DNA from: a virus
Virus record (IMG/VR): IMGVR_UViG_3300015078_000002
Span: 1 to 62,264 of that record
Length of the DNA: 62,264 nucleotides
Reading direction: 5' to 3' (one strand)
This document shows positions 9,750 to 62,264 of the stretch, one piece after another. The notes beneath the pieces are model-generated. The model did not search any database and was not told the origin of the DNA. It worked only from the letters and a program-made list of their open reading frames with translations. Positions within the stretch are counted from its first letter, which is position 1; every line of letters begins with the position of its first letter. A program made the translations under genes and the position numbers.

Positions 9750-10586
9750 ATGACAACGATCTTGCGAGCGCTCATGAACTGGCTCAACGCGCGACCGACA
9801 TCCTCGACGGCGCCCGACCCACCGCCCGCGCCGCCCGCGCCAGACCCAACGCCCGAGCCACTGCCTGTCAAGTCGCCGCTCTTTGTGGCCGGCCTTTGGC
9901 GTGGTTCGCGCTACGCATCCGCCAACCCGAGCCGCGTGGGCGCCCTCATCGATCCTGAGTTCGTCGTCGAGCACACGACCGACATGCACCCGGACGGCTG
10001 GAACGCGCTGGTCACCGCGTGGACAATGACGCCCGGGAATGGGGCATGTGCGCACTTCTTGATCGGTCGCACGCCCGAGCAGGGCGTCGTCCAATTCGTC
10101 CCGATCACGCGCAACGCGAACCACGCCGGCGGCACCACGCACGGCTGGTTCGTGATCAAGGGCGTGCGCTCCCACCCAAACCTGAAGGCGATCGGCATCG
10201 AGATCCACTGCGCCGGCCGCCTGCGAATGAGCGACGGGGTCTGGCGCTGGGGCGAGAACGACGGCAATGGCTGGGTCGCCAAGGGCGCCGCGATCCCGGA
10301 TGCCGAGGTAGAGCCGATCACCCCTTCGACCGGATTTCACCTACCGACCGCCTACCAGATCGCCATGCTGACCCGACTCGAGTTCGACCTCGCCGCCATG
10401 CTGCGCCCGCTGACCGACCGCAACTGGTTGCTGATTCCGAACCCACCGGACCACTGGCCAGCGTGGGCCAAGCCCCTACGCCCGATGGTCCCCGTGCTCG
10501 GCCATGTCCACCTGGACCCGACGAACCGCGAAGACCCCGGCCCGGCGTTGTGCGAGCGGATCTCAAAGTTGACATGGGGTACTTGA
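9750..10586 (+). CDS. N-acetylmuramoyl-L-alanine amidase endolysin (Amidase_2/PGRP type)
   Basis: HFLIGR...ANHAGG...AIGIEIHCAG...GHVHLDPTNREDPGP matches the T7-lysozyme/PGRP amidase signature. Pro-rich N-terminal linker. Confidence 0.8.
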   Translation: MTTILRALMNWLNARPTSSTAPDPPPAPPAPDPTPEPLPVKSPLFVAGLWRGSRYASANPSRVGALIDPEFVVEHTTDMHPDGWNALVTAWTMTPGNGACAHFLIGRTPEQGVVQFVPITRNANHAGGTTHGWFVIKGVRSHPNLKAIGIEIHCAGRLRMSDGVWRWGENDGNGWVAKGAAIPDAEVEPITPSTGFHLPTAYQIAMLTRLEFDLAAMLRPLTDRNWLLIPNPPDHWPAWAKPLRPMVPVLGHVHLDPTNREDPGPALCERISKLTWGT

Positions 10587-10617: not shown

Positions 10618-10845
10618 ATGACGAAACGAACCCAAGCGGTGCTCGGCCTACTCGCCGAATCGGCGCAGCTCACCGCTCTCGAGATCGCGGACAAGCTGCA
10701 GCTCGCGACCGGCAACGCGGTGACGGCCTCGCTCGTGTCGATCTGCGATCAGGGGTTGGCGAACCGCGTGGCCGGCGCGGTCAGGCGCTACGAGGTGACC
10801 GCCCGCGGTCGCGAGGTGTGGCGTACCCTTCAGGAGCGGCCATGA
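10618..10845 (+). CDS. Winged-helix (MarR-like) DNA-binding protein
   Basis: MTKRTQAVLGLLAESAQLTALEIADKLQLATGNAVTASLVSICDQGLANRV... wHTH-like pattern. Confidence 0.5.
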   Translation: MTKRTQAVLGLLAESAQLTALEIADKLQLATGNAVTASLVSICDQGLANRVAGAVRRYEVTARGREVWRTLQERP

Positions 10846-11330
10846 AGATTCTGATCGCCCTGATCGCCCTGATCGCGTTCACCGGCTGCGCCGGCACCTT
10901 CGGCGCGACTGCCCCCGAGCGCCCGCGCACCAGCTGGTTCGAACCGCGCGACACCGCGCTCGAAACCGCGTGGGTGGCGACATCGGCGCTGACCGCGTGC
11001 GACTCGGCCGGCACGATCTGGTCCACGAACTTCGGGGCCTATAACCGCGTCACGAGCCCAGGCATGGTGCTCGGCGAACGCAACCCGATGGTCACCGCAC
11101 TACTCGGCGACCACCCCGGCCCGGCCGCGTTCGTGGTCAGCGGGCTGGTCACGATCGGCGCCTCCTACGCGGTCACCAGGGCCCCGTTGCCTCGCTGGGT
11201 CCGCTGGACGTTGCTCGGGGGCCTTGGCGCCGTGGAGAGTTTCGCCGTGGCCGCCAACGCGCGCTACGCGGGCGCGTGCGGACTGGCCGGTGTCACGGAC
11301 ATGCCACTCTCGATGCCCGGCGCCCGCTAG
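10842..11330 (+). CDS. Lipoprotein with C-terminal hydrophobic segments (spanin-like candidate)
   Basis: ATGA overlap. MKILIALIALIAFTGC has the lipobox FTGC. Two hydrophobic stretches lie near the C-terminus. Adjacent to the endolysin. Confidence 0.6.
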   Translation: MKILIALIALIAFTGCAGTFGATAPERPRTSWFEPRDTALETAWVATSALTACDSAGTIWSTNFGAYNRVTSPGMVLGERNPMVTALLGDHPGPAAFVVSGLVTIGASYAVTRAPLPRWVRWTLLGGLGAVESFAVAANARYAGACGLAGVTDMPLSMPGAR

Positions 11331-11334
11331 CCCG

Positions 11335-11607
11335 TCACGGTGTCCCGGCAGCGCTTCCGACGCCGGCATCGCCTCGCGTGGTAGTCGCCGCGCCTGGGCA
11401 ATCCTTGCGCGCCTGGGCATACGACGCTGCGAGGCCCATCTGCTCGGCCTGGGATGCCCCGTGCTGTCCGAGCAAGCCCGCCGAGAACTGCTCGAGCATC
11501 ATGAGGTCGGTGCACAGAACCGCACGGTTCGGATCGCTGGTAACGATCCGATTCGTCGGCTGCGACTGGCAGCCGACGAGCGCGAGCAGCAACCATGTCG
11601 CCTTCAC
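11335..11607 (-). CDS. Small lipoprotein (90 aa; o-spanin-like candidate)
   Basis: GTG 11607 in a GTGA overlap. KATWLLLALVGCQSQ has the lipobox LVGC. Converges on the plus-strand lipoprotein gene with a 4-nt gap. Confidence 0.55.
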   Translation of the reverse strand: MKATWLLLALVGCQSQPTNRIVTSDPNRAVLCTDLMMLEQFSAGLLGQHGASQAEQMGLAASYAQARKDCPGAATTTRGDAGVGSAAGTP

Positions 11608-33207: not shown

Positions 33208-34254
33208 CTACAGCGCGGCGTCGAGATCCTTGATCACCCCGTTGCGGAACGGGTACCGGCACTGCAGTTGCGGGTACATGATCAGCTGGAACGGGTACGC
33301 GTCGCCCGTCGGCCCCAGCGCGTGGATGCGCGCCGTGAGCTTGCCGGTTGGCTGGCCGAGTTGCTCCTCCGGCGTGCCCATCACGGAGATCATCGCCATC
33401 GACTGGTTCGCCGCAGTGACTTGGTCGGGCAGCTGCAGCACGCGGATCGTCGCCGTGTTCAGCGCGACCATGTTGCCGGTCGGGCAGTCGACATCCTCGA
33501 GAATCGGCACGCCGTCGTGCTCCAGCATGGTGAATCCGCCGTCGAGCGCGATCTGCTGGCCGCGGAGCCGGATGTCCATCACGTAGCGGCGTTGCTGGCC
33601 GAATAGCGAGCCGTACTTGTTGTAGAGCTCGGGCGTGGTCACCCACAGATCCGGCTTCATGCCCGAGGCGCGGTAGATCTGCGCTCGCATCGCGCGCATG
33701 ACATCGAACGTGAGCGCGCGCCCGACGCCGCCGTTCGCGCTGACGTTGGACTGCCACTGCGTGCGCACGGCGCGGTCGATGCCGGCGTACGTACCCGTGT
33801 TCGAGAGCGGGCCGCCCGTCGCGAGCAGCCCGAAAATGAAGTTGGCCGCGCCCGACCCGACCCACAGATCGCCGGCGACACCCTTGGCGAGACGCTCGAC
33901 GCTGTCGCCGAGCTCGTCGACGAACAGGTTGCTCAGCTCCTCGGGATTGCGCGCCGCCGCCGCCATCGCCATCGCCTTGCCGGTGACGGAGAAGGCGGTG
34001 TCGTACGTGCCGAATTCGAGCGCGGCCGGGATCTTGTCGTCGTTGTCGAACGTCACGACGGCAGCGCCCTCGGCCCGGGCCGCTCCGACCGCGGTACCGA
34101 AGCGAGCGGCCCACGTGATGTTCTTTCCCGTGGTGCCGTTGCCGACGGGCAGCACCTGGAGCAGCACCGTGGCGCGGTTGATCTGTGACGCGATGCGATC
34201 CTCGAAGATCGTGGTCAGCGCCGAGGCGATTTGAGCGGTTGCGACGATCGACAA
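33208..34254 (-). CDS. Major capsid protein
   Basis: TTG 34254 after AGGAG. 348 aa, SIVATAQIASALTTIFEDRIASQINRATVLLQVLP... Assigned by size and position in the head module. Confidence 0.65.
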   Translation of the reverse strand: MSIVATAQIASALTTIFEDRIASQINRATVLLQVLPVGNGTTGKNITWAARFGTAVGAARAEGAAVVTFDNDDKIPAALEFGTYDTAFSVTGKAMAMAAAARNPEELSNLFVDELGDSVERLAKGVAGDLWVGSGAANFIFGLLATGGPLSNTGTYAGIDRAVRTQWQSNVSANGGVGRALTFDVMRAMRAQIYRASGMKPDLWVTTPELYNKYGSLFGQQRRYVMDIRLRGQQIALDGGFTMLEHDGVPILEDVDCPTGNMVALNTATIRVLQLPDQVTAANQSMAMISVMGTPEEQLGQPTGKLTARIHALGPTGDAYPFQLIMYPQLQCRYPFRNGVIKDLDAAL

Positions 34255-34472: not shown

Positions 34473-34631
34473 ATGAACAAAGCAATCGAGACCGCCGCCA
34501 ACAGCGGCTGCATCTTCGGTGTCGTTGTCGTCGCTGTCTTTGCGGTTTGCGGTCACTCGGCCGCCATGTGGCTCCTGCTCGCGCTCGTCGCCAACGTCGC
34601 GGCATTCGTCGCGGTATGGAGCCGGTCGTGA
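34473..34631 (+). CDS. Small two-TM membrane protein (52 aa)
   Basis: MNKAIETAANSGCIFGVVVVAVFAVCGHSAAMWLLLALVANVAAFVAVWSRS. Below the ORF-track cut-off. High GC3. Confidence 0.55.
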   Translation: MNKAIETAANSGCIFGVVVVAVFAVCGHSAAMWLLLALVANVAAFVAVWSRS

Positions 34632-34978
34632 TCGTCCTCGACAGCCAGCACCTGCTCATGGTCGAGCCTACGAGCCCGCGCTCGGCGACCCCCGTGATCG
34701 ACGGCCTGACCCGCAAGATGGCCGCCGCGCTCGCGACAGCACGGATCGGAAACCACTACCGCGGCCAGCACAGCTGCACCGGGCACGGCTGCCGGTCGGC
34801 GAGCGACAATGCCGACCACCACGTCGGCGAGGCGCTGACCAACTCGCTCGCGGTCCACTACCTCGCGTATCACCGCGAGGACGTGCCGGCCGAAGAGTTG
34901 CTCAAGGTCGCCGCGCTGGCGGGTGACGAGGTCGAGCCGACCACGGCCCAGATCGAGGGCGGGGTGTCGCTGTGGTGA
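34616..34978 (+). CDS. Hypothetical protein (120 aa), His/Cys-containing
   Basis: MEPVVIVLDSQHLLMVEP...HYRGQHSCTGHGCRSASDNADHHVGEALTNSLAVHYLAYHREDVP... Confidence 0.6.
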   Translation: MEPVVIVLDSQHLLMVEPTSPRSATPVIDGLTRKMAAALATARIGNHYRGQHSCTGHGCRSASDNADHHVGEALTNSLAVHYLAYHREDVPAEELLKVAALAGDEVEPTTAQIEGGVSLW

Positions 34979-35280
34979 CCGCGGAGACGGCGCCGATGGC
35001 GTACCGCTTTATCGCGACGGCGTACCTCGATGACGCACGCGCGAGCGGGGTTCGGTTCGGAGACCGTAAGGTATTCCTCAGCACCATCCCGGGTATCGAC
35101 CTCACTGACCCCGATTGCACGTTCCTGCTCGACGAGCTGCGCCGCATGCAACTCCTGACCTTTGCGCGCGCCGACTTCGTGGCCGCGATGGACCCTGTGC
35201 TGGTAAGCGCGTCCGAGTGGCGCCTCACGTCGCCCACCGGCGGGACGATGGCAACCTTTCACTTTCTGGTCATCCCGTGA
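34972..35280 (+). CDS. Hypothetical protein (102 aa)
   Basis: GTG start overlapping the upstream stop. ...GDRKVFLSTIPGIDLTDPDCTFLLDELRRMQLLTFARADFVAAMDP... Confidence 0.6.
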   Translation: MVTAETAPMAYRFIATAYLDDARASGVRFGDRKVFLSTIPGIDLTDPDCTFLLDELRRMQLLTFARADFVAAMDPVLVSASEWRLTSPTGGTMATFHFLVIP

Positions 35281-35537
35281 CCCGGCTCGCCGCCGGCACC
35301 GGCGCCCACATCGCAGAATTTCTCGAGTTGCCGCTCGCTCGCGATGGCGACGCCAAACGCGCGCTCCGACGAGGGGCAGCCCGCGCGATGGCCCGCGTGC
35401 TGCGCACTCAACTCGGCTACCCTGGAGCCGCGCTCGCGCTCGAGATGTACGCCGAGGATCTGCGAGCGCCGTTCGATCCGGGCCAGTTTGACGACGATCC
35501 CGACACCGAGATCGTAATCGTCATCGAGGCCGACTAG
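35277..35537 (+). CDS. Hypothetical acidic protein (86 aa)
   Basis: GTG 35277 in a GTGA overlap. TRLAAGTGAHIAEFLELPLARDGDAKR... The TAG stop shares the CTAG at 35534-35537 with the scaffold-gene stop. Confidence 0.55.
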   Translation: MTRLAAGTGAHIAEFLELPLARDGDAKRALRRGAARAMARVLRTQLGYPGAALALEMYAEDLRAPFDPGQFDDDPDTEIVIVIEAD

Positions 35538-38830: not shown

Positions 38831-40708
38831 CTACTTCTTGGCCTTCGGCGGCACGAACTTGCCCGGCATGGGCGGCTTCGGCTTCGCCGGGTCCGACCCG
38901 CCCGGCGGTGCACCCTCGGGTGGCGGTTGCTGGTCGGCTTGCGCCAGCGCATCGCTCGCCGCCTTGGCGGCCAACTCCTCGGCCGTGATGCTCTCGCGGA
39001 TCTGCTGCCGGATGAGTTCGGCATCGTCCTGCGGGACGTCACCGAGGATCTGCCCGTAGGTCTTGCTGAGAAACAACTCGGCGAAGCGCGCGCTCTTTTG
39101 CGGGATCCCGTTGAAGACGTCGATCGCCAGCGCGATCGCATCGTTAACTCCCTCGACGTCGAATGACTCGAGCCCTGTAACGCTCGCCTTCGGGACCGCC
39201 GTGCCGCGACCCAGCGAGCCGAGCACGAACAGCCGGCGCACGAACGGGTGGAGCAGCGCGCCGAACGCGTCGAGCAGCACCGCCGTGGTCGCGTGGTCCT
39301 GCTGCTTGCTCTCGCCGCTCCGCTGCAGCGCCGCGTTGTCCATGTTCGCGGAGAGCGCCATCGAGAACATCACGCGGTGCATCTCGCGCATCGCGTCGTT
39401 GCAGGACTCGCGCGCCGCGACGAAGACCTCGGGCGCAGGCCCGACATACATCGCCTTGTCGTCTTTGCCGCGCACCTGGGTGTGGCCCACGCTGCGCAGC
39501 TGGTTCACCGCGCGCCCGCTGTCCTGCTGCGCGTCGGGCACGGGAAGGCCGACCGATTCCTCGGGGCCAAGGAACTCATAGAGCTGCGAGAACAGCGATC
39601 GAAACTCGGCCCAGCCCATCGCGCAACGCTTGTTGAAGTGCTCGCGCGCGAGGCTATGGAGCTTGCCCATCGCGTGCATCCCCTCGGGCAGGATCAGCCG
39701 CTCAAGCGGGACACGGCCGAACGCGTGCGGCGCGCCGTCGATCGGCGAGAACGGCATGTCCGGGTGCGGCGGCTTCGTGGGGTCGACGTCGATCTGGTAC
39801 TTGATCCACGCGTGGGCGTCCCACATCACGTAGGTGTGCCGGATGATCCCGCGGCGCGCCTTCATCGTCGGGCGGATCGACTCGCACGTGAGGATCGTCG
39901 CCCATATCAGGCGGCCCTTGTCGTCGCACTGCCAGTCGATCACCTGCTCGGCCGGCACGAGGCACAGGTACGGGTCGTTGCCCTCGCCGGGTTCCGCTTC
40001 GTCGGCGGATGGCAGATCGGCGAGCACCCACGCGATCCGGGTCTGCAGCGCCTCGCGGAGCGCGTCGACGCAGAACCGATGGATCGATCGCCCGCCCTCG
40101 TCGTCCTCCTCGTCGTCGGTGCCGTTGTCCTCAAGCCCGTAGTCCGCCGGGCGCTCGGCCTCGTCGGTCACGTCGCTCACCCAGTGCTGCCACCACTGCG
40201 CCTCCTTGTCGGGCTTGGCCGCGATGCCCTCGTCGTCGATCAGCGTGAACGAGACCTTGAGCGGATCGGTCCCGAGGCCGGCGAGCAGGTGGTCGATGAT
40301 CGTGCCGGGGTACGGGAAGTAATGCGCCCGCGCCTTGCGCTGCGCGTACACCGCCGCGTCCTCGAAGAGGTTGCGCGGGAACAGGCGCTCGAGCACCTTC
40401 GGGTCCCCGAGCAAGCGCTGGCCGCCGGCGTACAGCGCTCGGCATTCGGCCCAGTAGTCGCCGTACCACTCGGGGTTGCGCTGCTGGAAATCCGCCCAGG
40501 TCAGCGTCAGCGCCGAGTCCTTGACGTCGAGTTGCGCCGTCGGTGTCGGCGCCGAATCCGACCGCAAGCGCATGCGCAGGTTGACCGCCGCCGCGAGCTC
40601 CGGGCCCCGAGGTACGCCCTCGAGAGCGGAGTCGATCATCGTGTTGAACGGTCCGAGCGGTGCAACCATGTGCAGCGTTTTACCGCGTTCGTAGCCCCGC
40701 TGCGACAT
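38831..40708 (-). CDS. Portal protein
   Basis: 625 aa, immediately upstream of the MuF-like gene. Acidic patch DDEEDDEGG. Assigned by size and order. Confidence 0.65.
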   Translation of the reverse strand: MSQRGYERGKTLHMVAPLGPFNTMIDSALEGVPRGPELAAAVNLRMRLRSDSAPTPTAQLDVKDSALTLTWADFQQRNPEWYGDYWAECRALYAGGQRLLGDPKVLERLFPRNLFEDAAVYAQRKARAHYFPYPGTIIDHLLAGLGTDPLKVSFTLIDDEGIAAKPDKEAQWWQHWVSDVTDEAERPADYGLEDNGTDDEEDDEGGRSIHRFCVDALREALQTRIAWVLADLPSADEAEPGEGNDPYLCLVPAEQVIDWQCDDKGRLIWATILTCESIRPTMKARRGIIRHTYVMWDAHAWIKYQIDVDPTKPPHPDMPFSPIDGAPHAFGRVPLERLILPEGMHAMGKLHSLAREHFNKRCAMGWAEFRSLFSQLYEFLGPEESVGLPVPDAQQDSGRAVNQLRSVGHTQVRGKDDKAMYVGPAPEVFVAARESCNDAMREMHRVMFSMALSANMDNAALQRSGESKQQDHATTAVLLDAFGALLHPFVRRLFVLGSLGRGTAVPKASVTGLESFDVEGVNDAIALAIDVFNGIPQKSARFAELFLSKTYGQILGDVPQDDAELIRQQIRESITAEELAAKAASDALAQADQQPPPEGAPPGGSDPAKPKPPMPGKFVPPKAKK

Positions 40709-40723
40709 GATAGCGTGGCGGCG

Positions 40724-41035
40724 ATGTCAACATCCTTGACCGTGGGCAAAGCCCGCCTCTGCACCATGACGCTCATCACCGCCGGCCTCGTCGACACCAC
40801 GACGGTTCTATCGGTGAGCAGCGGCAACCCAGCAACCCTGAGGGTCACCGTGAACCCCGACAACCCGCGCCAGATCGCCGCGGTCGGCGTAGCACCCGGC
40901 AACGTCAACGCGAACGTGACCGCCAACGGGCACACCGCTCAGTCGCTGTTTGCGGTCAGCGCAGCCGCGCCGCCAGCCGACGGGCCGACGTTCGGCGACT
41001 GGGGCGACGAGATCGATCCGCCAACTTGGGCGTAG
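40724..41035 (+). CDS. Ig-like (Big_2-like) domain protein
   Basis: ATG 40724, only 15 nt from the divergent portal start. ...VLSVSSGNPATLRVTVNPDNPRQIAAVGVAPGNVNANVTANGHTAQSLFAV... Confidence 0.45.
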   Translation: MSTSLTVGKARLCTMTLITAGLVDTTTVLSVSSGNPATLRVTVNPDNPRQIAAVGVAPGNVNANVTANGHTAQSLFAVSAAAPPADGPTFGDWGDEIDPPTWA

Positions 41036-41045
41036 CGCTTCTTCG

Positions 41046-41282
41046 TCAGGTCTCCTTGGTTGGTTGAGTCGGATCGGCTGGTATCTGCGCTACCGCTCGC
41101 CGCTCCCACATCTGGGCCAGCTGCTCTGCTCGATGCTGGGCCATGGTCGCGCGGACCACCTCGCGGCGATCGAAGAGCGCGCGACAGAGGTCGCCCGCAT
41201 TCCATCCGGTGCGGTAGGCGATCTTCCCGACGAGGACGACAGCGAACGCGAACGCGAACGCGGCGACCATGACCATCAGCAT
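41046..41282 (-). CDS. Small membrane protein (78 aa)
   Basis: MLMVMVAAFAFAFAVVLVGKIAYRTGW... has a single N-terminal TM. Confidence 0.55.
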   Translation of the reverse strand: MLMVMVAAFAFAFAVVLVGKIAYRTGWNAGDLCRALFDRREVVRATMAQHRAEQLAQMWERRAVAQIPADPTQPTKET

Positions 41283-41488
41283 CCTCCGCTCCTCGTGCGC
41301 CTGCGAGACTCGACCTCGAGCGTAAACTCGTCGCCGAACGTCGTCCGCGCCTCGGGTACCGGCCTCGACGGGCGTAGCGGCATGACTGCGATCGAGAATT
41401 CCACGATCACCGGCCGGTCCAGTATGGCGGGCCGCCTGGGATCGGTCACCAGGCCGATCCTGGTCTCTCGCCGCATCCTCCGCGTCAT
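41276..41488 (-). CDS. Hypothetical protein (70 aa)
   Basis: ATG 41488 in an ATGA overlap. MTRRMRRETRIGLVTDPRRPAILDRPVIVEFSIAV... Confidence 0.45.
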   Translation of the reverse strand: MTRRMRRETRIGLVTDPRRPAILDRPVIVEFSIAVMPLRPSRPVPEARTTFGDEFTLEVESRRRTRSGGC

Positions 41489-41643
41489 GACGCGTCCTCC
41501 GCGCGCAGTACGCGCCGCGCCGCGGCCTGGTTCATCGCCTTGACTCGCGCTTGCTCGTCTTCGTTCAGACGCAGCCAGACGAACTGCGGAACCAGCCCAT
41601 GCTCGGCGCGCCAGCGTACAGCCTCCTCTTCGATGTCGCTCAT
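41485..41643 (-). CDS. Hypothetical protein (52 aa)
   Basis: ATG 41643 after GGAGGG. MSDIEEEAVRWRAEHGLVPQFVWLRLNEDEQARVKAMN... Confidence 0.5.
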   Translation of the reverse strand: MSDIEEEAVRWRAEHGLVPQFVWLRLNEDEQARVKAMNQAAARRVLRAEDAS

Positions 41644-41719
41644 ATTGACCCTCCGGCCAGCGCGCTCGACGAGTGCACTCGACGGAAGGCGCCGACCTCC
41701 AAGGGCCGGCGCGTGGCAT

Positions 41720-42085
41720 CTAGGGCACTTCGCCGGCGGCGCATCTGGTCTGGAGCTGGTTGTAGCAATTGACGTAGCAATCAGTACGGTACTGATCCGG
41801 CTGCAGATGGCAGCGATCGTCGCATTCGTTGCTTTGTGCGTCCGTTGGCTCGGGGCAATATATGCTGTGGCTGTCGTCGTCACAGTTGGAGAGACAAACC
41901 CAGTCACTATTGTTGTCGTGCTCGAGGCTGAACTGCACCTTATCCGGGCCATTCCCGTTACGTACTGCCTTCCATGGATTGCAATACGGGCTACCCGAGC
42001 ACGTCAGACCTTGTTCGTCCTGGCCGAAGTGAACGGGTACGGCGCAAGCTGCGAACATGATCAGAAACGCAATAATGATCTTCAT
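41720..42085 (-). CDS. Cys-rich lipoprotein, paralog family member 1
   Basis: MKIIIAFLIMFAAC (lipobox). 10 further Cys. ...EHDNNSDWVCLSNCDDD... C-terminus CAAGEVP shared with 43048 and 42082. Confidence 0.7.
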   Translation of the reverse strand: MKIIIAFLIMFAACAVPVHFGQDEQGLTCSGSPYCNPWKAVRNGNGPDKVQFSLEHDNNSDWVCLSNCDDDSHSIYCPEPTDAQSNECDDRCHLQPDQYRTDCYVNCYNQLQTRCAAGEVP

Positions 42086-42474
42086 GGTCGGACTCCTGCG
42101 ACGCAGTTTGTCAACGTATCGGGCAGGCACGTGTACCTATTGCACTCGAGGGGGAACTGCCGACACGTGGGCGGGTCATTGAGCGCGCATCCGACGGCTT
42201 CAGGGCTGGATATCCACTCATCATACGCATCGCATGCCTGTTGGCAGTGCGCATAGAGCCAATCGGGCCAGTCGGCACAGTAGCCGATATCGGTTCCCCA
42301 TTCTTCTCCACATGCTTGCCGGCACGGCGTATCCGGGTCACCACGAACCAGGCCAGGGTTGCACTGTGTCGTCGTGCAGGACGCACTTACCTCTTGCGAG
42401 GTGTCGTCGATCTGCGGCGGTCCGCCGCACGCGATAAGCGCGAGCACCACGAGCGCGGTGTAGACGGTCTTCAT
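42082..42474 (-). CDS. Cys-rich lipoprotein, paralog family member 2 (divergent)
   Basis: MKTVYTALVVLALIAC (lipobox). 12 further Cys. C-terminus NCVAGVRP. Confidence 0.7.
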   Translation of the reverse strand: MKTVYTALVVLALIACGGPPQIDDTSQEVSASCTTTQCNPGLVRGDPDTPCRQACGEEWGTDIGYCADWPDWLYAHCQQACDAYDEWISSPEAVGCALNDPPTCRQFPLECNRYTCLPDTLTNCVAGVRP

Positions 42475-42476
42475 TG

Positions 42477-42956
42477 TCAGTTGCTTCCGTCGCCGGTGAT
42501 GCACTGCGCGCTGGCCGTTCCATCTGCAGCCACGATCACGGTGCAGGTGAGCTGCACTCGACCGGCGAGCGGTAGATCGATCAGAACGCCGCACGTATAC
42601 GACGTACCGCCAGATGCGTGCGGCGCCCCCAGGACGCAGATGAACGAGGCCATCTGCGCGTTCGTGGCATCGGGGTGATCGTCGACCGCGGTTCCGAGAC
42701 TGGAGGTGCCGGCCGCGTAGGTATACTGGTCACCGAACCCGTGCCACGCGTCGCACGTGACAGTCCCGTCGGCGAGAGTGAGCGGGCCATAGAACGCACC
42801 GCGCGAGTCGTTCGCGCTGCCGTCGTGGCAGTTTTCGCCGTCGATGGCGATCTGCGTGCACTTCACGTTGGTGATAGGCTCGCAGGGATCGGCATGGGCG
42901 GTGGCAGTCGTGGCGATGGTCGCGAGCGCGAGCAAAAATGCAGTGATGATCTTCAT
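42477..42956 (-). CDS. Secreted Cys-containing protein (signal peptidase I type)
   Basis: MKIITAFLLALATIATTATAHA/DPCEP... 159 aa, 10 Cys. Confidence 0.7.
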   Translation of the reverse strand: MKIITAFLLALATIATTATAHADPCEPITNVKCTQIAIDGENCHDGSANDSRGAFYGPLTLADGTVTCDAWHGFGDQYTYAAGTSSLGTAVDDHPDATNAQMASFICVLGAPHASGGTSYTCGVLIDLPLAGRVQLTCTVIVAADGTASAQCITGDGSN

Positions 42957-42995
42957 GATATTTCCTTGTGATTCAATTGCCCACCATTGGGCAGT

Positions 42996-43039
42996 GCGCT
43001 GTCGGGACTCGAACCCGCTCTCCCAACGTCGACCAGCGC
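42996..43039 (-). other. tRNA-like T-arm minihelix (not a complete tRNA)
   Basis: Minus strand: GCGCTG-gtcgacgttgggagag-CGGG-TTCGAGT-CCCG-a-CAGCGC. A GGTTCGAGTCC T-loop consensus is closed by a 6-bp acceptor-like stem. D and anticodon arms are absent. Confidence 0.35.
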
Positions 43040-43047
43040 GCCAGCAA

Positions 43048-43410
43048 TCAGGGTGGCTCGCCCGCCACGCAGCCGATCGTTTGGCTATTCATGCAATCTC
43101 GGATACAGCCGTAGTAGTTCGGCGTGCAGACGGCCACGCAGTAGTTGATCCAGTTGTTTCCACCGTCGCTCGGGTCGGGACAGAACGCGCCCCAGTTCTC
43201 GTCCCCGCAGTTCGCCTCGCACTGCCAGTCGGCGTTGTCGTTGTGCTCGCACTCCACGCTACTGCCGCTGTCGTTCGCGCCAACGGCAACGCATGACCAC
43301 GGATGGCAACGGGGATGGTTCGGGCACTGCAACCCCTGGATGTCGGTGCTCTCGACGGTGCCATTGGCACATGCCGCGATCAAGATACAGACGAGTAACA
43401 TGGTCTTCAT
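43048..43410 (-). CDS. Cys-rich lipoprotein, paralog family member 3
   Basis: MKTMLLVCILIAAC (lipobox). 12 further Cys. ...EHNDNADWQCEANCGDE... C-terminus GCVAGEPP. Confidence 0.7.
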   Translation of the reverse strand: MKTMLLVCILIAACANGTVESTDIQGLQCPNHPRCHPWSCVAVGANDSGSSVECEHNDNADWQCEANCGDENWGAFCPDPSDGGNNWINYCVAVCTPNYYGCIRDCMNSQTIGCVAGEPP

Positions 43411-43559
43411 GGCGTGCCGGTTCCTCCATGGGTCGGCGTTCCGATCGTGCCGATGATGTTCGGCCGGTCGCCAGCGACCGGCGCGCCCGGAACTCGACGG
43501 CTCGCCTGGTTAACCGCGCATGCGGTCAGAGCTAACACAAGTGCCAGAATGATCTTCAT
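43407..43559 (-). CDS. Small lipoprotein (50 aa)
   Basis: MKIILALVLALTAC (lipobox), then a Pro/Gly-rich tail. GAGGAA SD. ATGA overlap with the next gene. Below the ORF-track cut-off. Confidence 0.55.
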   Translation of the reverse strand: MKIILALVLALTACAVNQASRRVPGAPVAGDRPNIIGTIGTPTHGGTGTP

Positions 43560-43598
43560 GTTGAAGTTCCTCGCCGCGTGGCTGCGACATGGTCCTCA

Positions 43599-43627
43599 TG
43601 TTATTCCTGCACAGTAAACTCGGTCAA
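43599..43627 (-). promoter_or_regulatory. Sigma70-like promoter candidate for the lipoprotein cluster
   Basis: TTGACC (43627-43622), 17 nt, ATAACA (43604-43599). GTTTAC (43619-43614) in the spacer. A leader of about 40 nt precedes ATG 43559. Confidence 0.45.
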
Positions 43628-43663
43628 CAGATCGGCATGCCGCGAAGTGATGCACTATCTCCT

Positions 43664-43999
43664 TCACGACGCCTCCCTCTGCTCGTCACCGAGCCGGTCG
43701 CAGTAGTCCTCGTACGCTGCCTCGGCGTCATCGCGAGCGGCTTCCAGCGCCATGTCCTCGATTTCCTGCTCGGCCCGGGCCATCGAGATCCCGCGCTCGG
43801 CCGCGTAGCCGAGGATCACGGTGACGGTGCGCTCAACGTCGGTCACGCCGACGCTGAACTCCACCGTGGCTGACCGCGCCAGATCCGCGTAGCCGCTGTC
43901 ACCCGGATCGTGGCGGGTCGCCGCGGTCGGCGGGCTATAAGAGCGCAGCGGGATCGTGTAGTAGGCGTCACCGACGGTGAGCGTTACAACGGCGGTCAC
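43664..43999 (-). CDS. Hypothetical protein (111 aa)
   Basis: GTG 43999 in a GTGA overlap. TAVVTLTVGDAYYTIPLRSYSPPTAATRHDPGDSGY... Confidence 0.6.
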   Translation of the reverse strand: MTAVVTLTVGDAYYTIPLRSYSPPTAATRHDPGDSGYADLARSATVEFSVGVTDVERTVTVILGYAAERGISMARAEQEIEDMALEAARDDAEAAYEDYCDRLGDEQREAS

Positions 44000-44151
44000 G
44001 AACGCACCGCCGTGATCTCGGCAAGAACGTCGCCGTGCCAGACTTGGACGTCACCGCCGTCAAACCACGTCAGTCGACCGTCGGCGTGCAGCACGACGAG
44101 GCCGCGGTAACAGGTCGTGTGCGGTCCTCGGTTGTTGAGACGGGCGATCAC
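43996..44151 (-). CDS. Small hypothetical protein (51 aa)
   Basis: GTG 44151. IARLNNRGPHTTCYRGLVVLHADGRLTWFDGGDVQVWHGDVLAEITAVRS. GTGA overlaps at both ends. Confidence 0.5.
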   Translation of the reverse strand: MIARLNNRGPHTTCYRGLVVLHADGRLTWFDGGDVQVWHGDVLAEITAVRS

Positions 44152-44405
44152 GAGCGCACCACCTGTGCCAGCTGTTGCTCAAGCGCGTGCTGCAGCTTGA
44201 CGCTCAGCCCAGCCTGGTCGGCGCACAGCACCGCGAGCGCGGCCCACTCCGTCTCGGTCAGCGCCGGCAGACCAGCGAAGACCGACTTGGCGACCTTCTT
44301 GGCGCACTCGGGGTGCTGGCCGGCGTCGTCGGTCTCGGACGCGTGGGCGGGCAGCGAGCAAACGGGGCAAAGGTCGAGAGCGACTGGGGTGTGGTTCGTG
44401 TCCAT
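44148..44405 (-). CDS. Hypothetical protein (85 aa)
   Basis: ATG 44405, MDTNHTPVALDLCPVCSLPAHASETDDAGQHPECAKK... First gene after a promoter candidate. Confidence 0.6.
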   Translation of the reverse strand: MDTNHTPVALDLCPVCSLPAHASETDDAGQHPECAKKVAKSVFAGLPALTETEWAALAVLCADQAGLSVKLQHALEQQLAQVVRS

Positions 44406-44411
44406 GTGATT

Positions 44412-44440
44412 ACTCTAGTGCAGTAAACCGGTCGTGTCAA
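44412..44440 (-). promoter_or_regulatory. Sigma70-like promoter candidate (leaderless geometry)
   Basis: TTGACA (44440-44435, overlapping the terL TGA), 17 nt, TAGAGT (44417-44412), 6 nt, ATG 44405. GTTTAC in the spacer. Confidence 0.55.
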
Positions 44441-45996
44441 CCGAACGGGTTACGATTCTTCAAGGCACCGAATTGACTGCGCTTTACGTCCCATAGCTCG
44501 TTGAACCCGTGTGCGAGCGCGTCTATCTCGTCGTCCTCGAGATCCCCCACGCCCGTGAACTTGTCGGCCTCCCATAGAAGCTCGTCTGCCCAGGTGACGT
44601 TGCTCGCCACGCCCGCGCGAAGCTTGCGCTGCGCCCGCATGCCGGTGACCTCGTTGCGGGGCAGCATGAATCGCCCCTGGCGCCCGTCGGGCCACGCCGC
44701 TTGCGCGTCCCACCACAGCTCGCTGTCGAGCGGGACGAGCACGCGCCCCGTATTCCACGCCGCGGCGAGCCCCTGCGCCCGGGTGAACTTGTCGCCCTTC
44801 GGCTTGATCGGCCGGATGCGAAGCCGCGGCTCGATCTCCTTCAAGATCTGTGGCACCGCCTTGAACCCGCCCACGCTCTCGATCGCGACCGGCGCCGTGC
44901 CGCCCCAGTGCCGCATCGCGATCTCGTAGAGCTTGCGCGCGACCGCCGGAACCGTGACGTGATCGCGCCAGCCGAACAGCACCCAGATCACCATGTCCGC
45001 GCCGTAGCCCTTGGCGGCGAGCACGAACGCGGCGCTGAAGTCGGCGCGGTTGTCGTCGGTCGCCGCGGGGTCGCAGCAGATCAGGATGCGGTGCCCGTCG
45101 GGTCGCCAGTCGGCGAGCGAGAACCGCGCGGGGTCGCCGAAGATGTCCGCGCCCTTGGGCCGCGGGCGTTGCTGGTAGAGCGACGCCCAACTGTAGGGTC
45201 CGATCGACTCCTCGATCTTGCGCAGCTCGTCGGCGGAATACTGCTCGGGCCATAGCGCCTCGCCGATCTGCCGGCCGAGGATGTCGTCTTCGTCCTCGCA
45301 GATCGCCTTGAGCTTGACCTCCTCGAACTGGTAGCCCCTGAACTTGCCTTGCAGCAGACGGCCGATGAGATCGTCGTCGTGCCAGCGCGTGAACTGCGCG
45401 ATCACCGAGGCGCCAATGCGCGTGGCCGATCCCGGATGGCACCGAGGCCACAAGACGTCGGTGAACCACTCCCATACGTTCTCGCGGACCTTCTTTGACT
45501 CGGCGTCCTTGCGGTCCGAATAGAGGTCATCGATCAGCGCGACGCCGTTGATCGGCTGGCCGGTCCACTGACCCTTGTAGCCGTGCGCGAGCAGCCCGCC
45601 GCCTTGAGTGGTCTGCCACTCGTGGAGCGCGCTCGAGCCGCGAGGGAGCGACACGCCGCCCGCGATTGCCATGCGCCGGCAGATGCGCGACTTGCTCGCC
45701 GCGAGATCATCGGCGTACGTCGCGTAGCCATGGGAGAGCACGGGATCGCGCGACATCCGCCACGCCAAGCCGTGCAATCCCGTCGTGCTCTTGCCGTTTT
45801 GCGGAGGGAGCTCGACGACAGCGAACACGCGCTCGTATCGAGTCCGCTCCCACAGCGCGCCGACAGGCTTCAGGTGCCGCGGCAGCTGCTGATACGGCGA
45901 TACCCGGTGAATGAACTCGTCGAGGCTCTCGCCCCCGTTCTGCGACCTCAGGAGCGTCGCCAGCCTCGCCTCCTCCGACGAGGTCCAGCCTTCCAC
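44437..45996 (-). CDS. terL: Terminase large subunit
   Basis: GTG 45996. Walker A ELPPQNGKSTT, ...ALIDDLYSD..., C-terminal nuclease-type segment ...ILICCDPAATDDNRADFSA... 519 aa. Confidence 0.85.
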   Translation of the reverse strand: MEGWTSSEEARLATLLRSQNGGESLDEFIHRVSPYQQLPRHLKPVGALWERTRYERVFAVVELPPQNGKSTTGLHGLAWRMSRDPVLSHGYATYADDLAASKSRICRRMAIAGGVSLPRGSSALHEWQTTQGGGLLAHGYKGQWTGQPINGVALIDDLYSDRKDAESKKVRENVWEWFTDVLWPRCHPGSATRIGASVIAQFTRWHDDDLIGRLLQGKFRGYQFEEVKLKAICEDEDDILGRQIGEALWPEQYSADELRKIEESIGPYSWASLYQQRPRPKGADIFGDPARFSLADWRPDGHRILICCDPAATDDNRADFSAAFVLAAKGYGADMVIWVLFGWRDHVTVPAVARKLYEIAMRHWGGTAPVAIESVGGFKAVPQILKEIEPRLRIRPIKPKGDKFTRAQGLAAAWNTGRVLVPLDSELWWDAQAAWPDGRQGRFMLPRNEVTGMRAQRKLRAGVASNVTWADELLWEADKFTGVGDLEDDEIDALAHGFNELWDVKRSQFGALKNRNPFG

Positions 45997-45997
45997 G

Positions 45998-46588
45998 CTA
46001 CGCCGATCCGCGAGGCCTTGTTCCGATGTCCGCTGGGATCTCGACGTCGCTCGTCATCGTGACCGCAGGCCCGACTGCGGTGCGGTGACATATCTCGATC
46101 AGAATGTGCTCGGGGTCGAGCGCGTCACGCGAGCATGTGACCCGCACGTCGAGCACATCGGGATCGATCGCGCTCAGCGCGGTCTTCAGCTCTGCTTGCA
46201 TGCTCTCGAGCTCGCTCGCCGGCCCGGGCACGTAGCGGTCCATCACAGCGTGCAGCAGGTCCTCCATCGTCACGCCCTCGCCGCGCGCCGCGGCGCGTCC
46301 AACCAAAGCCTCCCACCGGGCCACCGGTCGCGGGACCCAGATCGATGCCGCCATGCTGTCGCCGCGGTACTCGAGCACGTGAGCGTGGTGCGCGTCGTCG
46401 ACCATGAGCTGGCCGATCACCTCCCACACCGTCATCTGGCCCATCACGAACAGCGTGACCAGCCACGCCTCGCGCTCGAGCCCGTGGAGCCGGTCGCAGC
46501 CGTCGCAGAGCGCGCAGCGGCGCAGGTGGGCGCGCATCCCCGACTGCAGGACGCCGCAGCAACGGCAGCGTGCGTTGGCGTTCGTCAC
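45998..46588 (-). CDS. Hypothetical Cys-cluster protein (196 aa)
   Basis: GTG 46588 in a GTGA overlap. TNANARCRCCGVLQSGMRAHLRRCALCDGCDRLHG... is Zn-finger-like. Ends 1 nt before terL. Confidence 0.55.
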   Translation of the reverse strand: MTNANARCRCCGVLQSGMRAHLRRCALCDGCDRLHGLEREAWLVTLFVMGQMTVWEVIGQLMVDDAHHAHVLEYRGDSMAASIWVPRPVARWEALVGRAAARGEGVTMEDLLHAVMDRYVPGPASELESMQAELKTALSAIDPDVLDVRVTCSRDALDPEHILIEICHRTAVGPAVTMTSDVEIPADIGTRPRGSA

Positions 46589-46890
46589 AGGCCGTCGATC
46601 CACGCGGCCACCGTCGCCGCATCGGCCGCCGAGAAGAACGCGATCCCGTGGTGGTCGCCCTTGGTGACGAGAGCGTTCGTCGCGCCGGGCTTGACCTTGT
46701 ACTGAGGCTGCAGCGCGGCGAACGAGGTCAGCGTGGGCTGCTCGTTCATTGGGTCGCCGTGGTGGCATGGCAGGCAGCGGACGACCAGCGGCGCGATGAC
46801 GGCATCGAACATCGGATCGCGCACAACGGCGTCGAGCGGCGCGACCTCGCCGACGGAGCACGCGGCGAGCAGAAGGATTAACAACCTCAT
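46585..46890 (-). CDS. Lipoprotein with CxxCH haem-binding-type motif (PSCyt1-like)
   Basis: MRLLILLLAAC (lipobox). CLPCH is encoded at 46776-46762 (TGC CTG CCA TGC CAC). The surrounding ...VIAPLVVRCLPCHHGD... resembles the planctomycete cytochrome c domain. Confidence 0.55.
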   Translation of the reverse strand: MRLLILLLAACSVGEVAPLDAVVRDPMFDAVIAPLVVRCLPCHHGDPMNEQPTLTSFAALQPQYKVKPGATNALVTKGDHHGIAFFSAADAATVAAWIDGL

Positions 46891-56918: not shown

Positions 56919-58016
56919 TCATAGGCGCATCGGCATCGCCACGCAGCGATGACTCTTGTCCCCGAACGGCATGATCAGCGCGGGGTCCACGTCGGTGCCG
57001 AGCGCGATCACAGCCTGTTCGCTCGTCATCGTCGAGAGTATCTCCACCAGGTACTTCGGGTTGAACCCGATCGACAGGTGCGGGCCGCTGCACTCGGCGC
57101 CGATCTCGTCGGAGACCTGCCCCATGTCCGGGTGCTCGGACACGAGGGACAGACCGTCCGCCGACGTCGTGATCTTCACGCCGCGCGTCTCGCTGGTCAT
57201 CAGCTGCACGCGCTTGAGCGACTCGATCAGGCGCAGCCGGTCGACGGTGACCAGCGTCTTGTTGGCGATCCCGTCGAACATCGTGCGCAGGTTCGGGAAC
57301 TCGGCGGCGATCAGCTTGGCGGCGATCGTGAGCGTGCCGACCTGCACGAATAGGATCGGCCCGGCGACGCCGACCATGGGCGCCTCGTTGCTCTCGGCGA
57401 TCTTGCGGATCTCGCCCAGCCCCTTGCGCGGCACCAGAACACCATTGTCGAACACCGGGCCGGCCGCGATGCGCTCGACCACCGAGGCCCGATGCCCGTC
57501 GGTCGCCGATGCGCGCATGACCTTGCCGTCGCTCTCGAGCAGCACGCCCGCGAGGTTGAACTTCGCGTCATCCAGCGACGTCGCGAAGATCGTGCGGTCG
57601 ATCAGGTCGCGCAGTACGATCGGGTCGACCTTGACCAGCTTGGCCTCGGTCGCGATCGGGACGCGAGGGAAGTCGCGGTCCGACATGCCGAGCAACTTGT
57701 ACTTCGCCTTCCCGCTCTTGATCTCGGCGTGGTTACCGTCGCTCTTCTTGAGCGTCACATCCTCGCCTGGCGCGTTGGCCACGAGCTCGTAGAGGCTCTT
57801 GGCGTCAAGCGCGATCCCGCCCTCGACGGCGTTGGCGCTCTTGAGCTCGGCGGTCAGCGAGACGTTGAGGTCGGTGGCGGCGACCAGGATCTGCCCCTTG
57901 CCGTGCGTGCGCAGCACGACGTTGCCCAGCATCGGCATCACGTTTTTCTTGTCCGCGATGCCCTGCGCCAGCTTGAGGCCGCGGAGAAACTCGAGCTTTG
58001 CGATTCGGAATTCCAT
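56919..58016 (-). CDS. dnaN: DNA polymerase III beta subunit (sliding clamp)
   Basis: 365 aa. MEFRIAKLEFLRGLKLAQGIADKKNVMPMLGNVVL...ATDGHRAS...IGFNPKYLVEIL... Canonical three-domain clamp pattern. Confidence 0.85.
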   Translation of the reverse strand: MEFRIAKLEFLRGLKLAQGIADKKNVMPMLGNVVLRTHGKGQILVAATDLNVSLTAELKSANAVEGGIALDAKSLYELVANAPGEDVTLKKSDGNHAEIKSGKAKYKLLGMSDRDFPRVPIATEAKLVKVDPIVLRDLIDRTIFATSLDDAKFNLAGVLLESDGKVMRASATDGHRASVVERIAAGPVFDNGVLVPRKGLGEIRKIAESNEAPMVGVAGPILFVQVGTLTIAAKLIAAEFPNLRTMFDGIANKTLVTVDRLRLIESLKRVQLMTSETRGVKITTSADGLSLVSEHPDMGQVSDEIGAECSGPHLSIGFNPKYLVEILSTMTSEQAVIALGTDVDPALIMPFGDKSHRCVAMPMRL

Positions 58017-58022
58017 GGCGAC

Positions 58023-58052
58023 AACGTAGCACTACGGTAAACGCGGCGTCAA
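58023..58052 (-). promoter_or_regulatory. Sigma70-like promoter candidate (leaderless geometry) for dnaN
   Basis: TTGACG (58052-58047), 18 nt, TACGTT (58028-58023), 6 nt, ATG 58016. Spacer carries GTTTAC-CGTAGT-GCTAC (58042-58026). Confidence 0.5.
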
Positions 58053-58565
58053 GCATCTCGGGTCTCCCTGCTTGAGCAGCCCCAGGGTCTGCGTGGTCGC
58101 GACGCCATCGAGCACACCGATGGACGCATCGCCCTGCCAGCACGGGACGTCGCCGACCGAACCGTCGACGTGCGCGAAGTACGCGCCTGCGGTCACGGGT
58201 CGAATGGTCAGGGTGTCGCCGACCTCCACGCATGGCATCGCGGCCGAACGAGGGCACATGGCGGTGTACGTCCCGACCGTGGTAGCGCCGCGCTGGTGCA
58301 GGATGGTGACGGGCACGCAGGCGCCCGATGCGGTGACGAGCACGAGCGACATCGCGGTGATACCACCCGTGCAGTTGGAGTTTCCGCGGGTGGAGATGGA
58401 AAGCACGATGCTGCCGTTGGCCCCGGAGTCCTGCGGCGGGTGGACGTGAGCGTCGAGTTCGGCGTCACCGGTGCTGACCGAGGCGTCGTGCTTGGTGACG
58501 GTGGCGCAGCTCGAGGGCTGGCAGGATGCCACGACGATGACGAGCGCCGCGATGACACGCGACAT
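58032..58565 (-). CDS. Lipoprotein (177 aa)
   Basis: MSRVIAALVIVVASC (lipobox). Beta-rich mature part with 8 further Cys. Confidence 0.65.
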   Translation of the reverse strand: MSRVIAALVIVVASCQPSSCATVTKHDASVSTGDAELDAHVHPPQDSGANGSIVLSISTRGNSNCTGGITAMSLVLVTASGACVPVTILHQRGATTVGTYTAMCPRSAAMPCVEVGDTLTIRPVTAGAYFAHVDGSVGDVPCWQGDASIGVLDGVATTQTLGLLKQGDPRCLTPRLP

Positions 58566-62064: not shown

Positions 62065-62264
62065 CCGACCGCGAGCAGCGCGATGTCCGCGATCGACATC
62101 CCCTCGATCCCCTCTCGCGCGGCGCAGGTGACCAGCGCGACCGCCGGGCCTCCGATCTCTTGCTCTGGAAAGCCGTTGCCGTAGCCGTCGCCGTCGCCGT
62201 CGCCGTTGCCGTAGCCGTCGCCGTCGCCGTCGCCGTTGCCGTAGCCGTAGCCGTCGCCGTCGCC
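62061..62264 (-). CDS. X-Gly dipeptide-repeat protein, 3' portion (62210-62264 duplicates 1-55)
   Basis: Reads ...GDGDGDGYGNGFPEQEIGGPAVALVTCAAREGIEGMSIADIALLAVG, stop TGA 62063-62061. Confidence 0.6.
   Translation of the reverse strand, partial: GDGDGYGYGNGDGDGDGYGNGDGDGDGYGNGFPEQEIGGPAVALVTCAAREGIEGMSIADIALLAVG
62172..62264. repeat. Tandem hexanucleotide repeat (GCCGTN)n, continuation of 1-220
   Basis: Direct reading. GCC GTT GCC GTA GCC GTC ... runs to the window end. Confidence 0.95.

Follow-up and report, generated by a model that had tools for sequence, protein, structure and literature searches.

A putative moron-like cassette of exported, Cys-rich proteins interrupts the head module of a novel contractile-tailed phage

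Introduction

Why does a phage carry five small genes for apparently exported proteins, three of them extraordinarily rich in cysteine, between the genes for its large terminase and its portal protein? This question is raised by positions 41,720 to 43,559 of the IMG/VR virus record IMGVR_UViG_3300015078_000002, of which positions 1 to 62,264, a stretch of 62,264 nucleotides that we refer to as the window, were analyzed here. A preliminary description, made from the sequence alone, had interpreted the five products as disulfide-bonded lipoproteins of the periplasm or outer membrane of a diderm host, with receptor masking, superinfection exclusion, or envelope remodelling as candidate roles. Envelope proteins encoded by phages decide whether other phages can enter the infected cell and can change the surface properties of the host, and the known examples are few, small, and almost entirely from coliphages. 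The Cys density encountered here is, moreover, very unusual for bacterial or phage proteins.

From the analysis presented below we consider it highly probable that the five products are real exported envelope proteins that belong to an accessory cassette. Our preferred reading, which we put forward tentatively from the sequence evidence, goes further and holds that the five genes may be a moron-like cassette that was acquired horizontally, and that its envelope proteins would be stabilised by disulfides and probably anchored in the outer membrane.

Results

The five genes are consecutive on the minus strand (43559-41720) and coupled, in agreement with the preliminary description, and each of them starts with ATG-AAG followed by a short hydrophobic signal. 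The first gene, g5 (43407..43559), encodes a lipoprotein precursor of 50 amino acids (aa) (MKIILALVLALTA/C, with the slash at the predicted cleavage site; lipobox LTAC), the mature part of which is a basic, Pro/Gly-rich polypeptide of 37 aa with no further Cys. It is followed by g4 (43048..43410), which specifies a Cys-rich lipoprotein precursor of 120 aa (MKTMLLVCILIAA/C, lipobox IAAC), and by g3 (42477..42956), the product of which is a predicted secreted protein of 159 aa with 8 Cys and a cleavage site of the signal-peptidase-I type (MKIITAFLLALATIATTATAHA/DP; AHA/DP). The last two genes, g2 (42082..42474) and g1 (41720..42085), again encode Cys-rich lipoprotein precursors, of 130 aa (MKTVYTALVVLALIA/C, lipobox LIAC) and 121 aa (MKIIIAFLIMFAA/C, lipobox FAAC), respectively. 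The g5/g4 and g2/g1 junctions are 4-nt ATGA overlaps, and g3 and g2 are spaced by 2 nt and g4 and g3 by 92 nt. A Shine-Dalgarno-like purine run is located upstream of each of the five genes, and the public copy of the contig comes with gene calls for the same five products (50, 120, 159, 130, and 121 aa).

The four lipoboxes and the single signal-peptidase-I site that had been reported for these proteins withstood closer inspection. Using a Lys/Arg n-region, an uncharged hydrophobic h-region, and a lipobox [LVI][ASTVI][GAS]C as criteria, we found that g5, g4, g2, and g1 all have the n-region, h-region, and lipobox features of signal peptidase II substrates, with Lys at position 2, h-regions of 11-13 residues, and a mean Kyte-Doolittle hydropathy of 2.4-3.2. 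The same proteins passed the PROSITE PS51257-type pattern (4/4), which permits a Phe at -3 as in the FAAC of g1. The cleavage site of g3 fits the -3/-1 rule, and its homologs keep an A-x-A site (AYA/E and AYA/C). When the lipobox regular expression was run over all start codons in the six frames of the window it returned only 12 matches, 8 of which are in plausible genes, and half of these 8 belong to the cluster. These sequence features support the view that the products are Sec-exported proteins, four of which would be of the lipoprotein type.

The remaining lipobox proteins are encoded at 10842-11330 on the plus strand and at 11335-11607, 46585-46890, and 58032-58565 on the minus strand, which brings the total to at least eight and makes this phage unusually rich in lipoproteins. 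The gene at 10842-11330 comes after that of the Amidase_2 endolysin (9936-10586) and specifies a protein with a u-spanin-like layout of hydrophobic segments at its C-terminus, and the one encoded at 58032-58565 contains 8 Cys. None of these four could be assigned to a known family, with a non-significant match for 10842-11330 (E = 0.026) as the sole PHROG result.

We then come to the Cys-rich lipoproteins themselves. The mature parts of g1, g2, and g4 contain 10, 12, and 12 Cys (lipid Cys excluded), the same numbers that had been counted before, and the share of Cys in these proteins is 9-12% vs 0.95% in the rest of the phage proteome. In addition, the mature domains are strongly acidic (14-17 Asp+Glu vs 2-6 Lys+Arg). 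That the three would form a paralogous family could be upheld for g1 and g4, which align over their whole length with 35-38% identity (E about 1e-22), but the homology of g2 is marginal: against a profile of g4, g1, and the two outside homologs described below, P0005 and P0008, it scored 1.0 bit, which was reached by 116 of 4998 composition-matched shuffles. The case for paralogy of g2 therefore rests on Cys spacing and motifs, since it shares with the others the lipobox, 12 Cys, a QCNP motif, two CX3C motifs (g4, g1, and P0005 have three each), and an end of the form C-x7-C-V-A-G-x-x-P. Judged by these features g2 is probably a divergent, though unproven, paralog of the g1/g4 family. The shared C-terminal motif noted earlier is present as C-[VA]-[AT]-G-[EV]-x-[PE] in g1, g2, g4, and both outside homologs.

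The family turned out to have extremely few relatives. Searches covered 5.8 billion clusters by word index, with g4, g3, and a 5-sequence profile as queries and very few matches as the result, and 1.84 billion representatives by exhaustive HMMER without a word index. Among ~15 billion proteins the only outside members of the family were P0005 and P0008, both lipobox proteins, on two other metagenomic contigs, one of them phage-like and the other a 725-bp fragment. Two further candidates from the HMMER search, P0006 and P0007, were rejected as spurious repeat proteins. P0005 (118 aa, MKFLLILLIA/C, lipobox LIAC) is the closest relative of g4, with ~60-63% identity and all 12 Cys kept, and P0008 (127 aa, MIKAMLLSFLAG/C, lipobox LAGC) likewise has 12 Cys. 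Neither GTDB genomes nor IMG/VR yielded relatives of g2 or of the g4 and g3 families, and nothing was found when 50,697 phage records were searched by tblastn with g4 and g3. The earlier remark that no family is recognisable also holds, as no meaningful match to any of the five proteins came from Pfam, PHROG, NCBIfam, PADLOC, or PDB sequences; for g5 there was no family match in the first four, and zero PDB chains at E <= 10.

The homologs reside on contigs of different GC (53.6% and 63.7%) and have retained the lipobox and nearly all Cys. Conservation of the Cys pattern in homologs, on which the preliminary description had made its interpretation depend, is in fact pronounced: within the four-member core, identity to g4 is 90% in Cys columns vs 35% in other columns. 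The non-lipid Cys are even in number in every member, and g1 lacks exactly two, those at g4 positions 27 and 41 (C27 and C41), which have been lost together, as expected if both form one disulfide. Neither the length nor the sequence of the linker that separates the lipid Cys from the first Cys of the domain is constant, as in a lipoprotein tether. Because of the even Cys counts, the strong conservation of Cys columns, and the paired loss in g1, the proposal that the Cys-rich domains behave as disulfide-bonded extracytoplasmic folds is supported. The suggestion that paralog expansion reflects diversifying pressure fared less well. Synonymous sites are saturated for most pairs, and where dN/dS was computable (NG86) it amounted to 0.18-0.42, i.e. 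below 1, which is compatible with purifying selection and gives no support for diversifying selection.

The secreted protein g3 has a small family of its own. Its one homolog, P0003, is 50% identical, has the same cleavage-site type, and is encoded on the 70%-GC phage-like contigs L001 and L002 beside a tandem paralog, which matches g3 and P0003 with a blastp E of about 1e-9 to 1e-11. Signal-peptidase-I signals are present in all three proteins, and so is the motif C.DG..DSRG..YG...DG..CD.WHG.G. A Foldseek search with the g3 model (predicted local distance difference test, pLDDT, 41.4) gave no match at E <= 0.001. Directly upstream of the g3 homologs, at L001 4047-4217 and also at L002 341-511, a 56-aa peptide is encoded with a leader of the class I lanthipeptide-type / TIGR04149 double-glycine kind (NF038153 E = 1e-7; TIGR04149 E = 1.2e-5). 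Its core is Cys-rich (GGTNLCAQTQITCPPTAAPSCAPSCAKC) and no modification enzymes are encoded nearby; the peptide is possibly the precursor of a phage-borne ribosomally synthesized and post-translationally modified peptide, or is bacteriocin-like. The window contains no double-glycine-leader peptide like that of L001.

The statement that the cluster interrupts the packaging/head module is supported by comparison with related contigs. Between the large terminase gene (TerL; 44437..45996, minus strand) and the portal gene (38831..40708, minus strand) lies an accessory insertion of 3.7 kb (40709..44436) with ~12 small genes, comprising, besides the cluster, three genes upstream of it (43664-44405), three downstream (41046-41643), and one on the plus strand (40736-41035). 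The cluster is absent from the IMG/VR contig L006, whose TerL, portal, and capsid proteins are 38%, 34%, and 44% identical to those of the window; there the end of TerL (11398) and the start of the portal gene (11573) are 175 nt apart, vs 3.7 kb in the window. In L008, the TerL of which is 61% identical and which is the closest relative found, the genes upstream of TerL are conserved. Downstream of TerL, in segment 4460-11715, L008 has >7 kb of other genes, most of them on the opposite strand, and lacks a portal gene within 7 kb. In light of L006 and L008, the junction downstream of TerL looks like a plasticity or accessory-gene hotspot in this lineage. One of the L008 genes in this segment (8026-8379) encodes a Cys-containing lipobox protein (MRFALHILLMTVLVAC..., with an internal FCVTGD motif) that has no blastp match to the g1/g4 family at E <= 0.01.

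The composition of the cluster is atypical as well. GC at third codon positions (GC3) is 0.67-0.82 in the cluster, with values of 0.67-0.69 in g1, g2, and g5, compared with a phage mean of 0.857 (SD 0.046), so that the lowest values are up to ~4 SD below the mean; overall GC is 0.55-0.64 in the cluster vs 0.665 for the phage, with g1 (0.549) the lowest of the block. The outside homologs are found on other phage-like contigs, which differ in GC, and their positions there are unrelated: the P0005 contig, of 53.6% GC, also carries an ERF recombinase, and P0003 is encoded near an exonuclease, ParB, and a serine recombinase. Together, the insertion, the atypical composition, and the presence of homologs at other positions and on other contigs indicate that the cluster consists of horizontally mobile accessory genes. 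Morons are horizontally moving inserts between phage genes (PMC3594210), and two of their hallmarks, an insertion between genes that are neighbours in a related phage and a deviating base composition, are both seen here.

Such a cassette might be transcribed on its own, and a promoter-like element had indeed been suggested. A site with a sigma-70-like match (TTGACC-18-TAACAT) is present at 43598..43627 on the minus strand, within the 104-nt gap upstream of g5, but it is only a weak match to the consensus (9/12 positions). A second weak match (TGGGCA-17-TATCAT, also 9/12) at 42955..42983 on the minus strand precedes g3 in the 92-nt g4-g3 gap. In the region as a whole 4 promoter-like sites were observed vs 0.7 expected from shuffles, with the proviso that the sigma-70 consensus may not be that of the host. 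The predicted RNA fold of the g4-g3 gap is no better than that of shuffles. This gap also contains a tRNA T-arm-like motif (GGTTCGAGTCCC; 43004-43015, minus strand), which we considered as an att site or tRNA remnant and rejected because there is no tRNA and no Rfam match, and because the motif occurred in 45 of 100 shuffles. Finally, the 5' ends of g1, g3, g4, and g5, which code for the signal peptides, constitute a family of 36-nt DNA repeats (42051-42086, 42922-42957, 43376-43411, and 43525-43560, respectively), with 78% identity between the g1 and g3 copies. The first 36 nt of g3 and of P0003, which is encoded on another contig, are even 92% identical while the proteins are only 50% identical. 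This likeness suggests a signal-peptide module that is shared or exchanged, or else a strong constraint on the 5' end.

Regarding the phage itself, the contig is 62,264 bp long with 66.5% GC, and bases 1-55 recur exactly at 62210-62264; this exact 55-bp terminal overlap means a circularly closed assembly and a complete phage genome of ~62.2 kb. Almost all genes are on the minus strand and many have GTG starts. The proteome includes contractile-tail markers (Baseplate_J, gp25, and sheath-initiator domains), head and packaging markers (an SU10-like major capsid protein, a Mu F-like head protein, large terminase, and portal), as well as an Amidase_2 endolysin, a YqaJ/RecE-like exonuclease, RusA, a DNA methylase, and a beta clamp, and by these genes it is a novel contractile-tailed phage. 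There was no close relative among the 50,697 phage records. GTDB genomes yielded no relative of TerL, and no match was obtained for the sheath, nor for the endolysin in plasmids or phages; TerL does have many distant matches in actinophages. An identical public copy of the contig (L003) has the same sequence over 20.5 kb and so holds no polymorphism information.

The only usable clue to the host is a full-length DNA polymerase III beta clamp (56919-58016, minus strand). Among solved structures it is closest to gammaproteobacterial clamps, with 157 bits for 4TR8 of P. aeruginosa and 126 for 1MMI of E. coli, against 94 for 4TR6 of B. subtilis and 90 for 3RB9 of M. tuberculosis (organisms according to PMC4976356). 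Among phages it is closest to clamps of alphaproteobacterial phages, namely those of Rhizobium, Sinorhizobium, and Aurantimonas. The product of a gene downstream of the cluster (41046..41282, minus strand) is 78 aa long, has a transmembrane helix at its N-terminus followed by a helical tail, and gives a weak match to Rz-like i-spanins (phrog_2536, E = 0.0018); it is too small for a typical i-spanin, its gene does not adjoin a lipoprotein gene, and it may be unrelated to the cluster. A proteobacterium-like diderm is favoured as host because of the clamp scores, the relatives of the clamp in phages, the weak Rz-like match, and the at least eight lipobox proteins, all of which support it indirectly. 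The preliminary description had also allowed for a lysogenised host, which finds no backing in the 58 largest proteins of the closed genome, as there is no integrase or recombinase among them.

Discussion

The results raise the question of what a moron-like cassette of this kind would do. We infer the following sequence of events, from expression timing through export, lipidation, disulfide formation, and outer-membrane location in a diderm host to function. Transcripts of the cassette would arise together with those of the late packaging/head genes, at one or more weak promoters of its own, or in both ways, and all five products would be exported via Sec. In the g5, g4, g2, and g1 proteins the lipobox Cys would receive the lipid and signal peptidase II would remove the signal; g3 would be processed by signal peptidase I and set free in soluble form in the periplasm or outside the cell. 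In a proteobacterium-like host the four lipoproteins would be sorted to the outer membrane, as the E. coli sorting rule predicts for proteins that, like all four, have no Asp at +2, and each would sit on a variable tether of 14-25 residues. The acidic domains of g1, g2, and g4, ~90 residues each, would fold with 5-6 disulfides, several of which are probably CX3C-CX3C helix staples. These domains might then attach, at the cell surface or from within the periplasm, to envelope proteins of the host, which would thereby be altered or blocked as phage receptors. Superinfecting phages would thereby be excluded and progeny would be kept from adsorbing to debris, as for T5 Llp, T1/phi80 Cor, and Rtp45, and late co-expression with the packaging genes would fit the debris-protection role. 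By this analogy, receptor masking or superinfection exclusion is the leading candidate function, to be regarded as possible rather than probable. As for the earlier interpretation as disulfide-bonded lipoproteins of the periplasm or outer membrane, the export signals, lipoboxes, and Cys pattern agree with it at the sequence level and the evidence for the diderm host that it presupposes is indirect.

Among these systems, the periplasmic lipoprotein Llp, which has a Cys11-Cys58 bond, jams FhuA (PMC9586334), and Rtp45 binds LptDE (PMC12685063); binding to the outer-membrane receptor, FhuA or LptDE, changes its surface loops (PMC9586334, PMC12685063). Like the predicted lipoproteins of the cluster, Llp, Cor, and Rtp45 are small and phage-encoded, and they are exported to the periplasmic face of the outer membrane. 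They are, however, proteins of 6-8 kDa with 0-2 Cys, whereas g1, g2, and g4 are ~11-12 kDa with 10-12 Cys; the cluster comprises several paralogs and a non-lipoprotein partner, and it occupies the TerL-portal site rather than a position beside a receptor-binding protein gene. The lambda bor and lom morons resemble the cluster in their insertion between conserved neighbours, atypical composition, promoter-like site, envelope-protein products, and horizontal movement, but differ in that the cluster has five genes instead of one, no detected terminator, and no evident prophage state. Two further resemblances concern Cys only. Twin-CX3C or alpha-hairpinin helical hairpins are disulfide-stapled and recall the repeated CX3C of g1, g2, and g4, and chlamydial OmcA is a small, very Cys-rich lipoprotein like these; there was no Pfam match of the cluster proteins to any of these families.

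Several observations weigh against the reading as an outer-membrane-anchored, receptor-directed cassette. The PS51257 positional rule places the lipid Cys between positions 15 and 35. In g2 it is at position 16, and in g1, g4, and g5 it is at 14, one residue short; signal peptides would be unusually short here, and a longer N-terminus is impossible for g4 and g5 because the open reading frame begins at that ATG. In the outside homologs the lipid Cys is at 11 and 13, and the PS51257-type pattern is not passed. The genes of llp and its relatives are typically found beside a receptor-binding protein gene, and the cluster is not beside tail-fibre or receptor-binding genes; the genes for tail and baseplate lie around 12-30 kb of the window. 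To our knowledge, 10-12 Cys is far above the number in any superinfection-exclusion lipoprotein. No similarity to the Llp/Cor/Rtp45 class was found in PHROG, Pfam, NCBIfam, or PADLOC, and the g4-family profile and g5 had zero matches to PDB chains at E <= 10, a set that should contain the FhuA-Llp and LptDE-Rtp45 complexes (PMC9586334, PMC12685063). AlphaFold2 models from shallow alignments were unusable, with a pLDDT of 31.8 for the g4 family and the already low value for g3. No terminator-like site was found in the cluster region, and the cluster is in this respect no textbook self-contained moron.

Other functions could be served by the same architecture. The proteins g1, g2, g4, and g3 might be periplasmic inhibitors or immunity proteins, aimed at lysozymes, proteases, bacteriocins, or type VI effectors, or fitness factors like lambda Bor. 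Small, stable, disulfide-rich, acidic domains tethered to the envelope would suit such tasks equally well, several adjacent paralogs would fit several targets, and the position of the g3 homologs directly downstream of the peptide with the lanthipeptide-type leader in L001 and L002 hints at a link with exported peptides. We nevertheless consider this alternative unlikely, as no similarity to any inhibitor or immunity family was found, the absence of an integrase leaves no obvious long-term lysogen to profit, and the L001 association amounts to essentially one independent context. A role in lysis, in which g5 would be the o-spanin to an i-spanin encoded at 41046-41282 and its neighbours would modulate envelope disruption, strikes us as improbable. 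Mature g5 is indeed a short Pro/Gly-rich lipoprotein like Rz1, its lack of Cys is shared by 124 of 526 known o-spanins (PMC6139136), and the candidate partner has the transmembrane helix and the phrog_2536 match mentioned above. On the other hand, the two genes are 2.1 kb apart and neither embedded, overlapping, nor adjacent, the candidate i-spanin has only 78 aa, and the neighbours of g5 have no i-spanin architecture. The amidase endolysin is encoded 31 kb away, next to a lipoprotein gene of its own, and the block does not lie in a lysis cassette. With at most 4 periplasmic Cys among the 526 o-spanins (PMC6139136), g1, g2, and g4 cannot belong to this class of small outer-membrane lipoproteins, which comprises the Rz1 family and others; only g5 fits, by its size, Pro/Gly richness, and absence of Cys.

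A different objection concerns the host rather than the function. Were it a monoderm, e.g. a high-GC actinobacterium, the lipoproteins would be on the outer face of the cytoplasmic membrane and their disulfides would be made by an actinobacterial oxidoreductase. Lipoboxes and exported disulfides also occur in Actinobacteria, and the 66.5% GC, the many GTG starts, and the distant TerL matches in actinophages would all be in line with this. Exclusion could operate even there: the lipoprotein Ltp of Streptococcus phage TP-J34 reportedly mediates it in a monoderm. A monoderm host is in our opinion rather improbable, since the beta clamp is clearly nearer to proteobacterial than to mycobacterial or Bacillus clamps, its best phage matches come from alphaproteobacterial phages, the simple amidase endolysin has no LysB-like partner, and there is the weak Rz-like match. 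That the five are chance open reading frames, non-functional leftovers with coincidentally signal-like N-termini, might be suspected from the lack of a known family, the extremely few homologs, and the atypical composition. This notion can hardly be reconciled with four lipobox genes with ATG-AAG starts, Shine-Dalgarno-like motifs, and translational coupling, with the agreement of independent gene callers, with the retention of lipobox and Cys in homologs from contigs of different GC, or with a g3 homolog that is 50% identical and has the same cleavage-site type.

If the cassette of disulfide-stabilised envelope proteins is accepted as the preferred reading, a bolder version of it can be formulated. 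The g1, g2, and g4 proteins and their two relatives could represent an unknown class of disulfide-knotted outer-membrane lipoproteins that acts, together with g3 and g5, as a multi-target battery, a proposition that we think unlikely. In such a battery each paralog might lock a different host envelope protein, and the cassette would be an envelope-reprogramming module in a structural-gene hotspot; that it works this way also seems doubtful to us. It would, with similarly small likelihood, be distinct in fold and logic from the single small blockers of the Llp/Cor type. What can be said more firmly is that this nearly orphan protein family is new and that the phage feature to which it belongs is of a known kind. 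If the proteins bind outer-membrane components they would provide new tools and examples for receptor blocking, and the compact disulfide-rich scaffold could interest protein engineers. The cassette may for now be called a well-documented orphan.

Additional observations

Two further features of the phage genome were noticed near the head and packaging genes. The gene directly upstream of TerL (45998-46588, minus strand) has a counterpart in L008 at 35% identity and presumably encodes the small terminase; its product has a Cys-rich N-terminus (CRCCGVLQ...CALCDGC) that resembles a zinc-binding motif. In addition, four small plus-strand genes (34473-35537) break the minus-strand head module. They are flanked by scaffold-region genes and the major capsid gene (33208-34254) and are likely to represent a second accessory insertion.

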